A stretch of DNA of 20,000 nucleotides. Origin: Psammoneis japonica (taxonomy: Eukaryota). A model generated the notes under the pieces. That model did no database searches. It saw only the letters and a program-made list of their open reading frames with translations, and had not been told where the DNA came from. Where the stretch lies: positions 427,403-447,402 of the forward strand of contig QPGO01000024.1 in NCBI GenBank assembly GCA_008632985.1. The letters are read 5' to 3'. This document shows, piece after piece, positions 5,466-12,548 of the stretch (the first letter of the stretch is position 1; every line of letters begins with the position of its first letter). The position numbers and the translations under genes were made by a program.

Positions 5466-5623
5466 TCACCGTCAGAGGCGACGAGGGCGGCGGCCGGAAA
5501 TCCCCCTTTCGGGCCGCAGCCGCGCTCCGCCCGAGCCGTTTCGCGATCGGCTGAACGGACCTAGGATGGACGCCTCTCGCGCCGGTCGCGGGGGGAACAC
5601 GAGCGGGGCCGGGAGGAGCTTCG

Positions 5624-6372
5624 ATGTTCGCTGTGATTCGCTCGCTCGCCGCGGCCTGCGCAGGCCTCGGCCTGGTCCTCGCCCTGCAGCCCGCGTCCGC
5701 CCAGACGCTCTACGCCGTGGAGGGCTCCGCGCCCGCGCTCTGGGAGTTCACCGGCCCCGGCGACCCCTCGCTCTGCGGCTGCCCCAACGGTCCCGTGATC
5801 GCGACGCTCCATCCTGACCGACCGCGTGTTCGTCACCGACGGCCTGACCATCGCCGTGTGCGACTCGGCCGGCGGCTTCCTCGACAGCTTCCCGAGTCCA
5901 TTCTTCTTCATCGGCGGAGGCTCGACCGTCACGGGCATGGGCTGCGACTCCGTCGGCGGCCTGCTCTGGCTCACCGACGGGACCGCCTGCGGCGCGATGG
6001 TGCTGCCCCCCTCGCCGGGCTGCACGGCCGGGCCGACGACCTTCACCACCGGCCCCTTCACCGGCCCGGTCGGCTTTGGAAGCCTCGATGGCCCCATGCT
6101 TGACATCAAGTGGGACCCCTTCACCTCCTCGCTCTGGGCCTGCAGCGCCACCGGCAAGGTCGGCAACTTCCTGCCGGGGCCCTTCCCGCCGACGCCGGTG
6201 GCCGGCTGCTTTGCCTCCTTCCCGAGCCCCTGCTTCCCGGGTGCCGTGCCGCTGACAGGCCTCGCCCTCGACAAGGGCGTCTCCTCCCCCAGCGTCATGT
6301 GGGTCACGGACGGGACGACGATCGGCTGCGGCATCCCCGGCACCGGCCCCGCTTCGCCGGTCCTGCACGACT
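5624..6372 (+). pseudogene. GC-rich bacterial secreted protein gene remnant with a frameshift/internal deletion near 5800
   Basis: GGAGG at 5612-5616 precedes ATG 5624. Signal peptide MFAVIRSLAAACAGLGLVLALQPASAQ. The frame switches to ...DRVFVTDG...LWLTDG...MWVTDG (repeated propeller-like motifs). Strong G/C third positions. Many likely Tyr sites read Cys/His. Confidence 0.7.
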
Positions 6373-6486
6373 GCCGGCCCCAAAAGCGATTTCCTCCCCA
6401 TGCGTCGGAGGCTCCCGTCTAGACTCAAAAGACTGCCCCGATCGACGACCGCGGAGCACCCTGGGAGAGGGGCCCCCGCTCGACCT

Positions 6487-6512
6487 GGAGGAACCGCACC
6501 ATGACCACTCGC
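6487..6512 (+). promoter_or_regulatory. Orphan bacterial ribosome-binding site and start (GGAGG...ATGACCACTCGC) cut off by a junction
   Basis: GGAGG at 6487-6491 and ATG at 6501 in GC-rich DNA. Composition drops to moderate GC about 12 nt later. Confidence 0.4.
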
Positions 6513-10300: not shown

Positions 10301-11480
10301 CTTGCAGAAAAGGGGATTTTGGACTCCGGGCATGCGGCGAGGACCAACATCAGGACGGGGACAAATTTGTTTCCGAAGGGGCACACAAATCAACAACCGG
10401 AACTGATGCCTGTCGCTGAAACACAACAGAGAATTTGTCTGAAGGCAATGAAGGATGTCAACAACAGAGAGCTGAAGCCACTTGAGTCTGTGGGAGGCGT
10501 GCACCCAAGCAACAACACTGAGGCTGGGCACCGGGTGAGCGGGAACACTGCAGACACCTCACTTGCAGTGACACACCTCGAATGCAGACAATCAGCGGAA
10601 GCGATCCCTTTTTGTTAAAACAGACAAATTCCTGCATGGTCAGAAAAAAGGACAAGAGCAACAATTGTCAATTTGACACCCCACGGAGGTGAGGGGAACT
10701 GCGGCGTTGTTTCTTCTGGAACGTCCGTCGTGCAGACAGAGTCAGGGGGAAGAAAGCAAGCGGACGTCAAGGAAACGTCACGACGGAAAGCTGACGTCAC
10801 GACGGAAAAAACGGCAGTGACAGCTGGCAACACGACCAAAACGATGGCGGTGATGGAAGCGGTGTCGCGGGCGGATGAAACAAACCAAACTGAGATGAAT
10901 CAGCAACCACAACAGACAGGTGGACACCAACAGACTGAAAACAACACAACAAGAGAGGAAAGAGTGCGTCGCAGCGACGGATGCAGATGGACGCCCTTGG
11001 CGCGAACTGCGCAAGCAACAAAAGATGTGTGTGGTGCTTCACCAGATTCCTCAGGTGAGGGGCAATTCGAAATTAGAGATGCACCAGGCGTCTGCGTGGG
11101 ATTTTCTTTCCGTGACGCAGGAAGGTGACAGCATCATTAACTTCGTCATTTAGATTGTCAATTCGAATGTAGCATGTGTGTTTGTGAGCCTGCAATTGTT
11201 CAATGGAAAACATGCTGTGGTGCATTTTCTGTGTAGAGGGAAGGCACGTAAATGCACTGCCGACTGTGCGGCGGCCGAAAAGCGACAACGTCAGCACAGA
11301 AATTCTTTCGCTCAATCATGATGACGCAAGGAGCAGTTTCGTAGATTTGACAACATTTGGCACAAAGATGTGTGCATGCCCTCGGCAGGTTGGAAGGCAG
11401 GCTCAGACAAATGCTCCCAAAAAAGGGCTTGAGCAAAAAAAATTTTGATGACATCACAACAGGCCGGAACGCATGCTGTC

Positions 11481-11593
11481 ACATGTCGAGGGAAAAAAAC
11501 CGGTCAAATCCCTCGAGATGGGACTCCCTTCACATGGGGCCCTCTACATGGGACATGTCAGGGGAAAAGAGACACGTCCCTTCACACGGAGCC
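11481..11593. repeat. Paired short direct motifs, possibly subterminal repeats of a transposon
   Basis: acatgtcgagggaaaa (11481) / acatgtcaggggaaaa (11553) and tcccttcacatggggcc (11525) / tcccttcacacggagcc (11577). Confidence 0.45.
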
Positions 11594-12548
11594 ACTTTTT
11601 TGGCCAAAAAACCCTTCAGATGCTACGTGCAGAGAGAAACCCGTTGTCTGTGTGGACCGTTGTTTTCATCGTTGTGGGTGCATCATTCACATGTGCAACA
11701 ACGGGTCTGTGTGATGATGTTGCACACACTGGATGTGCGCAATCCAGAGACATGTTTTAAACAAATGTCACAACGAGCGCATGCAAGACTGACGCATTGT
11801 CTGTGCATTGACGCCGTTCCTGCGGTGCTGTCGTTCCCACATTGACCCACATGGTCCACAGTGAGGGCAAAATGTGATGTTGACATTGTGTGGCACGATC
11901 TCACTAAATTTCTGACATTCTCACTTGCGACATCCAATTGCTCACGCGTTTCTCCTTGTGGTAACACGAGATGGAAATGGCACCCCAAATCCATGAAAAA
12001 GTGCTCTGTGCTGGCGATGTGCGCGAATGGACACATCAGAATCGTCCATGCCATTTTTGCCAGACAAGTGTTAAATTCGAACAAGTTCCGGGAGTGGCCA
12101 ACTCAGCGAGCTTGAGGCACCGATTGTGCTCAATGATGTTTTCGCGTCGTCTCCGACGTGATGGAATGTTGCAGCGCGATTCTCGTCATTCGCGTGGGGC
12201 ATTGCGATCGACCGACGCATGCGGCGACAGCTCTGACAAAGTGAAAAGAGTACCCTACAGTCGGGTAAACTAAAGACAAAATATTCATTGTAACAACGTG
12301 CTACAGCTTAGATTGTGAGTGTCTTGGAGGGAGCTCCAAGACCTGCCGTTATCGCTAAAATAGCAATATAGTACATCCGCCTAAGACAGATAATCCACAG
12401 GGTGAATTATTCAAGCCCGCGCTGCGCGAGCAGCTACTGTGCTACTGTACAGGCAGCGGGCAGCGGTGAACAGCAACAGCAACATCAGTCGGCGTCGTTG
12501 CTCTTCACTCCCATCATCGAACTGATCACACTTTCGTATGTGTGATTC

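Follow-up and report, generated by a model that had tools for sequence, protein, structure and literature searches.

Probable TpA-directed hypermutation of foreign and repeated DNA beside intact genes in the diatom Psammoneis japonica

Hypermutation aimed at the dinucleotide TpA has been described in the chlorarachniophyte alga Bigelowiella natans, in a preprint (Mettrop et al., bioRxiv 10.64898/2026.01.13.699255, version of 2026-04-14). According to its main text, 231 of 302 new mutations in mutation-accumulation lines fell in integrated nucleocytoplasmic large DNA virus (NCLDV) and virophage regions. Nearly all were A>G or T>C changes, and the GC-biased ones lay, by the authors' account, without exception at TpA. 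Rates reached about 1,000-fold over background, in some lines only, and the NCLDV region concerned is single-copy and silent. Windows poor in TpA and rich in CpA+TpG were also reported to form 124 clusters in the B. natans genome, with an enrichment of element, viral and bacterial domains. An ADAT2-like deaminase was proposed as the agent, the candidate being distinguished by an HxE-PCxxC signature and an asparagine linked to DNA editing (10.64898/2026.01.13.699255). Here we analyse a 20,000-nucleotide stretch of the diatom Psammoneis japonica, hereafter the window (assembly GCA_008632985.1, contig QPGO01000024.1, positions 427,403 to 447,402 of the forward strand), about two thirds of which consists of tracts nearly devoid of TpA. 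The reading that we favour, with a probability of roughly 0.8, is a near-saturating, TpA-specific A:T>G:C hypermutation of non-genic foreign, repeat or unidentifiable DNA in the nuclear genome of a pennate-type diatom, of the kind seen in B. natans. A sequence-only reading of the window, made without database searches, had proposed such a process and had known of no description of it; the preprint now provides one. A literature search, with subscription journals and bioRxiv supplements outside its range, returned this preprint as the sole description and no report from a diatom; the main text of the preprint mentions neither diatoms nor stramenopiles.

The sequence-only reading had located the near-absence of TpA in three tracts and its ordinary frequency in the gene islands between them, and recounting bore this out. 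Ratios of observed to expected TpA (o/e) were computed at that reading's own coordinates, and the expectation was checked with 500 mononucleotide shuffles per tract. Tract 1 (1-1855) holds 10 TpA against 128 expected (o/e 0.08), tract 2 (5470-12250) 52 against 355 (0.15) and tract 3 (14520-20000, continuing past the end of the window) 49 against 261 (0.19), whereas gene island 1 (1856-5469) holds 172 against 264 (0.65) and gene island 2 (12251-14519) 109 against 162 (0.67). The lowest counts reached in the 500 shuffles, 102, 309 and 226 for tracts 1 to 3, remained far above those observed, and the shortfall tested against the host o/e gave Poisson P values of 1e-24 to 4e-47. These counts confirm that the TpA depletion in the three tracts is real. 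Calculated per kilobase, rho TpA in the tracts ranges from 0.02 to 0.27, and the depletion is equal across blocks of very different GC content and origin.

The limits of the tracts are sharp, within about 10-100 bp on a sliding profile and from the TpA positions themselves: dense TpA begins at 1855 and ends at 5451, then begins again at 12251 and ends at 14513. The edge at 5455-5470 is also the place where AT-rich host sequence gives way to DNA of 72% GC. Of the four edges, only that between island 2 and tract 3 has a zone of intermediate TpA density, at 14645-14766. The confinement to non-genic foreign or repeated DNA that had been proposed thus stands, the adjoining host genes being spared, and the process would halt within tens of bases of them.

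Analysis of the remaining dinucleotides revealed where the lost TpA went. In the poor tracts the strand-symmetric TG/CA rho ranges from 1.34 to 1.65, versus 1.19-1.25 in the islands, and ApT is not depleted (rho 0.68-1.09). DNA polymerase eta (Pol eta) prefers WA motifs, and Pol-eta-like error-prone repair at such motifs had been suggested as one possible agent. This fits poorly, and we rejected Pol-eta WA hypermutation as the signature: its mark is not seen because ApA/TpT is undepleted (rho 1.0-1.39, and 1.00-1.33 in the poor 1-kb windows) and AG is not raised (rho 0.91-1.02 in poor tracts versus 0.93 in islands). In most poor windows rho CpG is 0.6-0.9, against the 0.02-0.27 of TpA. It falls to 0.16 in 1-1000, where rho CA+TG is 1.71, and to 0.40 in 15001-16000; in these two segments TpA and CpG are both lost and TG/CA rho reaches 1.7-1.8, two decay routes leading to the same dinucleotides.

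The direction of change was read from a fragment in tract 2 that encodes part of a Tc/RHS protein of the cyanobacterial TcB type (TcdB mid/C; 6505-7838, + strand). Its Pfam match to TcdB_toxin_midC has an E value of 4.8e-14 in the frame 6505-7602. The fragment was compared with 182 homologue domains, and the protein kinase of island 2 was handled likewise as a control. At 13 columns where the consensus is tyrosine, the fragment reads cysteine in six, histidine in three, phenylalanine in two and tyrosine in two, while its conserved aromatic residues elsewhere are intact (10 of 10 phenylalanine and two of two tryptophan columns). The kinase, at 12 such tyrosine columns, reads tyrosine in seven and phenylalanine in five (Fisher p 4.6e-4 versus the fragment). 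Counting the changes within codons that derive from TA>TG/CA (TAY>TGY/CAY, TTA>TCA, CTA>CCA and GTA>GCA), we found 16 among 48 departures from consensus in the fragment versus none among 38 in the kinase.

Pairwise comparison at matched divergence gave the same picture. Homologue P0204, 71% identical to the Tc fragment, contains 5.4% tyrosine and 0.3% cysteine, and at its tyrosine sites the fragment reads cysteine 13 times, histidine four times and tyrosine three times. TpA loss accounts for 40 of the 107 differences between the two, 30 of them inside single codons and 10 spanning two adjacent codons, versus two of 115 between the kinase and its 74% identical homologue P0001 (p 7e-13), and the kinase keeps tyrosine at 10 of 12 homologue tyrosine sites. 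Four more Tc homologues show the same replacement of tyrosine by cysteine or histidine, and in two alignments to solved structures, three tyrosines of TcdB1/TcdB2 stand opposite histidine, cysteine and histidine of the fragment. The nearest bacterial homologues thus carry tyrosine, and not cysteine or histidine, at these sites. The loss of TpA is mutational, TpA>TpG/CpA (A:T>G:C), and not a native composition.

That the donors already avoided TpA, or that TpA was selected against in the tracts, is hardly credible. TpA is mildly scarce in most genomes, and the gene islands themselves reach an o/e of only 0.65. Against this, five close homologues carry tyrosine where the window reads cysteine or histidine, blocks differing in GC and origin are equally depleted, a dead gene fragment has lost conserved residues through the changes, and it is precisely at the TpA-derived sites that copies of one repeat differ. 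The residue counts that first drew attention to the tracts are also right (one tyrosine in a 572-aa open reading frame, three tyrosines and 12 cysteines in a 332-aa frame, 14 tyrosines in the kinase), and all five peptides then quoted were found in the window. The label MBOAT given to one of them, FICFAF (17598-17615, - strand), was not upheld, no Pfam family being found for the two covering frames of at least 70 aa.

Support for the assembled sequence comes from public run X1, from the sample of the assembly's likely source; the coverage of runs X3, X5 and X6 is limited to the kinase region and to a motif of about 40 bases at 8019-8069. Contigs of X1 cover 30 of 30 bins of the window at contig depths of 33-61 both in tracts and in genes, and agree with the window at more than 99% inside the poor tracts, so that the variant bases are supported. 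One contig (12091-13519) spans a tract edge with three differences, another (13496-15105) spans a second edge with none, and a contig within island 1 (2374-4353) also shows none. Since X1 contigs agree within the tracts and span two edges, the depletion stems neither from a consensus artefact nor from a chimera. A related scenario, bacterial contamination misassembled onto diatom DNA or a modified base at TpA systematically misread, would fit the bacterial-like character of blocks that in part reach 70% GC and the fact that the sole full-length support comes from the same sample. We consider it very improbable: the two edges are spanned at gene-like depth, the DNA of bacterial relatives has a rho TpA of 0.47-0.68 and not 0.02-0.2, and blocks of 45-50% GC without a bacterial match are depleted too. 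Moreover, one further round of replication would turn a base that polymerases read as G or C into a true mutation. What we observe directly is which way and in which context the bases changed, that the changes are confined, and that the tracts are physically linked to diatom genes.

Contig depth bears on whether repetition is needed. Depth is gene-like (33-60) in 1-1855, 5470-12250 and 14520-17300, and only 17343-20000 is high-copy, with a summed contig depth of 2,200-13,600 versus about 55 elsewhere, although this sum is a weak measure of copy number that diverged copies would escape. These depths lend no support to the dependence on repetition implied by the sequence-only reading, most poor tracts lying at the contig depth of single-copy genes.

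The copies of the repeat at 17343-20000 allowed the outcome of mutation to be followed at single sites. Four overlapping pairs, with 1,630 aligned columns and events that are not independent, gave 55 differences: 14 TG<>CA, 14 TA<>TG/CA, 15 of CpG type, 11 other transitions and one transversion. Inferred TpA sites account for 28 of the 55. A TG<>CA swap at one site is what two independent strikes on one ancestral TpA leave. The skew between TG and CA in the poor tracts does not exceed that of genes, both strands having been struck about equally, and both strands were struck within single repeat copies; strand-coordinated clustering in the tracts does not go beyond the level of genes. Homologue columns, matched divergence and repeat copies therefore all support the proposed TpA>TpG/CpA mutation on both strands, and the conditions under which the sequence-only reading would have given it up have not come true. 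In our model, a strike on the A of one strand would yield TpG and a strike on the A of the other strand CpA.

These observations also bear on timing. Foreign DNA or transposition intermediates might have been hypermutated at TpA while extrachromosomal and then integrated, the tracts being fossils of that event. Abrupt edges at composition junctions, such as 5455-5470, agree with this, as does a remaining polymorphism that is mostly of CpG type. Such a sequence of events is nevertheless improbable, given that repeat copies in the window differ at the same sites both in outcome (TG or CA) and in state (TA versus TG/CA), that single copies were struck on both strands, which a single-stranded intermediate would not give, and that the window and X1 differ at single-copy sites by TA<>TG and TG<>CA. 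In B. natans, according to the preprint, it was after integration, in the course of culture, that the mutations appeared. On the basis of the copy-specific outcomes, the single-copy polymorphisms and the B. natans experiment, we infer that TpA hypermutation acts on the diatom DNA after its integration.

The TpA sites that survive in the poor tracts are unevenly distributed over sequence contexts, with none in ATAT, two in ATAC, two in GTAT and 42 in TTAA. A per-strand multiplicative model (R2 0.81) returned survivals of 0.12 for TAT, 0.30 for TAC, 0.64 for TAG and 0.73 for TAA. In this exploratory analysis, whose baseline is the gene islands and not the true ancestors of the tracts, loss of the target A appears to follow its 3' neighbour in the order TAT>TAC>TAG>TAA. 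The excess of tyrosine-to-cysteine over tyrosine-to-histidine changes (13 to 4) fits this order, because TAY on the coding strand would be the favoured site. The agent may be a DNA-acting adenine deaminase converting A to inosine, which is read as G, and this candidate would prefer a pyrimidine 3' of its target A.

The same process and targeting could run on a different chemistry, either Pol-eta-like patch repair or a TET/JBP-type modification of thymine that mispairs with G (T>C). TpA is palindromic, which makes A>G and T>C indistinguishable from sequence; the favoured TAT reads as ATA for a thymine-directed agent, and the CpG-type polymorphism suggests methylated tracts that might draw repair. 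The intact ApA/TpT and the unraised AG speak against the polymerase, and the near-complete conversion of one dinucleotide, with one transversion among 55 events, looks enzymatic and unlike polymerase error. A chemistry other than adenine deamination is thus unlikely.

Another route that we considered is A-to-I editing of retroelement double-stranded RNA by an ADAR-like enzyme, the edited RNA then being reverse-transcribed and inserted. ADARs prefer G 3' of the edited A, and the order found here, T>C>G>A, is unlike that preference. Changes introduced through a reverse-transcribed strand would be one-sided, but the gains of TG and CA balance each other, and bacterial fragments at single-copy depth were struck as hard as the repeat. 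The segment 17.3-20 kb is a high-copy repeat, as this route would have it, and ADARs share the preference for U 5' of the edited A (10.64898/2026.01.13.699255, main text). A Pfam scan of 107 frames in the poor tracts recognised neither a reverse transcriptase nor any other element protein. We rejected retro-copied ADAR editing, in the absence of a one-strand signature and of a reverse transcriptase in those frames, and regard this route as having very little chance of being correct.

Differences between X1 and the window provide a view of recent change. Transitions make up 189 of 210, and the differences are ten-fold denser in records of the poor tracts (44 of 7,130) than elsewhere (3 of 5,019; p 1e-7), which suggests methylated, fast-evolving tracts. 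Among the 40 listed of 248 differences, 29 are of CpG type, two are TA<>TG and one is TG<>CA. The 29 CpG<>TpG/CpA differences, located in 5470-10100 and 1-1500, go in both directions, 18 and 11. They suggest that cytosines in the tracts are methylated, or that alleles or assemblies differ at these places. Hypermutation at TpA is possibly ongoing.

Targeting of the candidate deaminase might rest on silent, cytosine-methylated chromatin or on some other recognition of foreign DNA, and its role would be defensive, inactivating incoming DNA. As a wider and tentative proposal, to which we give somewhat less than an even chance, TpA adenine editing of resident foreign DNA could be an old and widespread defence of SAR-group algae (rhizarians and stramenopiles), represented in the diatom by a saturating, copy-number-blind, TAY-directed dedicated enzyme that halts within tens of bases of active genes and acts as a filter on the transfer of bacterial genes into diatoms.

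Several points weigh against hypermutation of the B. natans kind at this locus. The window is one 20-kb stretch, on which all results on the process rest, and X1 is not an independent isolate. Differences that are not of TpA type make up 67 of the 107 between the Tc fragment and P0204. The tyrosine test was not replicated on a second bacterial-type fragment, of a PAP2 phosphatase, where comparison with five bacterial loci left only three tyrosine-consensus columns (reading M, W and H). The non-independence of the repeat events and the island baseline of the context analysis count on the same side, sharp edges fit mutation before integration equally well, and present TpA activity is weakly evidenced because most of the listed X1 differences are of CpG type. 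When the B. natans thresholds were applied, 13 of the 20 1-kb windows passed for TpA, including runs of six and five, but only four of 20 also passed for CpA+TpG, and no three consecutive windows passed both. These thresholds are, according to the preprint's main text, the 5% extremes of another genome, and we attribute the few double passes to their having been set for that genome and to GC-rich blocks with few convertible TpAs.

The contents of the poor tracts were surveyed by a Pfam scan of 107 stop-to-stop frames. Matches were found in four, namely TcdB mid/C, PAP2 and two weak, sub-threshold ones, FG-GAP_3 at 7679-8098 and Ig_Rha78A_N at 18287-18553; no viral gene was recognised in the tracts, and about half of their sequence has no assignable origin. 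Many long open frames overlap in the tracts, with a tyrosine content of 0-1.5%. They are stacked in this way because TAA and TAG stops have been lost: of 677 stop triplets in the six frames of the poor tracts, 539 are TGA, versus 215 of 449 in the gene islands. Tract 1 contains no recognisable genes, its nine frames matching no Pfam family.

Tract 2 is a mosaic of unrelated blocks ranging from 45 to 73% GC, at a gene-like contig depth of about 33-57. The first, of about 72% GC (5470-6500), begins abruptly at the 5' end of a MatE gene and matches no Pfam family; its GC content is 0.71-0.73, with zero to two TpA per 500 bp. The Tc fragment follows. By tblastn it corresponds to about 410 internal residues of proteins of 1,500-1,800 residues, both termini being absent, with a single frame change near 7602, and it is dead. 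Its nearest named relatives are metagenome-assembled genomes (MAGs) of Xenococcus and Waterburya, at 70% identity, with Tolypothrix, Nostoc and Snowella also represented. A stretch of about 40 bases within 8019-8069, in the weak FG-GAP frame, matches many GC-rich contigs of seagrass and salt-marsh metagenomes, which to either side of the match continue with unrelated sequence. The stretch probably represents a bacterial repeat motif that has been conserved.

Farther along, two long open frames of 224 and 581 codons, stop to stop, occupy 8141-10558 on the minus strand. Both are poor in tyrosine (2 of 224 and 1 of 581) and rich in cysteine and histidine, with cysteine at 5.4% and 4.1%. Residues 230-581 of the longer frame, that of the 572-aa open reading frame, gave no homologue in a word-indexed search, and a scan of viral contigs, which relied on exact peptide words and is hence weak evidence, returned no match. 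The 581-codon frame includes a 51-nt tandem repeat (family D3; 9936-10112; four copies, 63-100% identity), which on the minus strand encodes a Gly/Ser/Asp-rich repeat.

In tract 3, the bacterial-type lipoprotein/PAP2 phosphatase fragment occupies 16562-17611 on the plus strand, in two frames of about 68-70% GC. The Pfam PAP2 match (E 3.3e-10) lies at 17237-17611, and its relatives are five bacterial MAG contigs at 36-43% identity, the source of the bacterial rho TpA values given above. The high-copy repeat (17343-20000) consists of nested inverted copies, 96-98% identical, and direct copies, 91% identical, and encodes no recognisable protein. It shows many joints between opposite strands, and the family is very abundant and internally rearranged.

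The gene islands that served as internal controls contain recognisable host genes. Island 1 carries a RING-finger gene (2213-2944, + strand; Pfam zf-RING_2) and exons of a MatE-type transporter (3966-5465, - strand; Pfam MatE), and island 2 the protein kinase, which has a DUF6826 (12549-14078, + strand). Among 53 relatives of the kinase the named ones are all diatoms, the best being a Bacillariaceae MAG protein at 74% identity. Its N-terminal region carries a poly-Gln run (12677-12735), which was passed over as a repeat in the contig comparison; near the kinase, run X5, from a related organism (organism B), lacks 12 bases at 12513. Four kinase-bearing metagenome loci of related diatoms (2.1-4.2 kb, nearly all gene) have a rho TpA of 0.59-0.62 and no TpA-poor tract, their flanks being too short to speak for other diatoms.

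Should the diatom and B. natans share one process, a genome defence so far documented only in a 2026 preprint would span two distant algal lineages, one of them, the diatoms, among the sea's most important primary producers. Such a defence would account in part for the ability of diatoms to tolerate, and for the most part neutralise, the bacterial DNA that they acquire, and for the small number of transfers that end up as working genes. A naturally occurring enzyme that changes A into G in DNA at a particular motif is also indicated; the adenine base editors used in the laboratory are built on engineered tRNA deaminases. Finally, the loss of TAA and TAG stops in such tracts produces spurious long frames and bacterial-looking 'genes', which can mislead gene callers as well as annotation and decontamination pipelines.

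Among known systems, the decay of 5-methylcytosine at CpG co-occurs with TpA loss in the tracts and feeds the same TG/CA pool. It removes CpG and not TpA, however, and is much less complete there than the loss of TpA. The defences of animals based on ADAR (double-stranded RNA) and APOBEC3 (retroviral cDNA) resemble the diatom case in producing clustered transitions that disable foreign nucleic acid. Their substrates are RNA or single-stranded cDNA and their signatures lie on one strand, whereas in the diatom both strands of resident DNA were struck, non-retroelement DNA included.

Repeat-induced point mutation (RIP) of ascomycete fungi is closer in form, being likewise a hypermutation in dinucleotide context: within sharp tracts, DNA that is non-genic or invading is inactivated, and its composition keeps the scar. 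Its cytosine-methyltransferase-like enzymes act on C, and not on A or T. RIP changes C:G to T:A, mostly at CpA, and creates TpA, while the diatom tracts lose TpA and gain TG/CA; it also requires duplicated sequence, while most diatom tracts stand at single-copy contig depth. We rejected fungal RIP given the loss of TpA, the gain of TG/CA and the TAY>TGY/CAY amino-acid changes, and the sequence-only reading was right that neither RIP nor CpG decay explains the loss of TpA. The authors of the preprint likewise compare their process with RIP (10.64898/2026.01.13.699255).

B. natans itself, as described in the main text of the preprint, offers the nearest likeness: TpA is converted only to TpG or CpA depending on the strand, both strands are struck alike, foreign DNA is targeted and ordinary genes are spared. 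The B. natans process strikes a single-copy target, and contig depth hints at the same in the diatom window. The hosts differ, a stramenopile diatom and a rhizarian chlorarachniophyte, as does the extent of the depletion, rho TpA per kilobase being 0.02-0.27 in the window versus 0.45 in the B. natans NCLDV region and 0.43 at its cluster cut-off. The targets here are bacterial or cyanobacterial gene fragments and a high-copy repeat. The window shows an effect of the 3' neighbour, and the main text of the preprint does not use the words 'trinucleotide', 'context' or 'flanking'. The process itself is thus already described once, in a preprint, and what is new in the diatom is the lineage, the near-saturation, the bacterial origin of targets and the 3'-neighbour effect.

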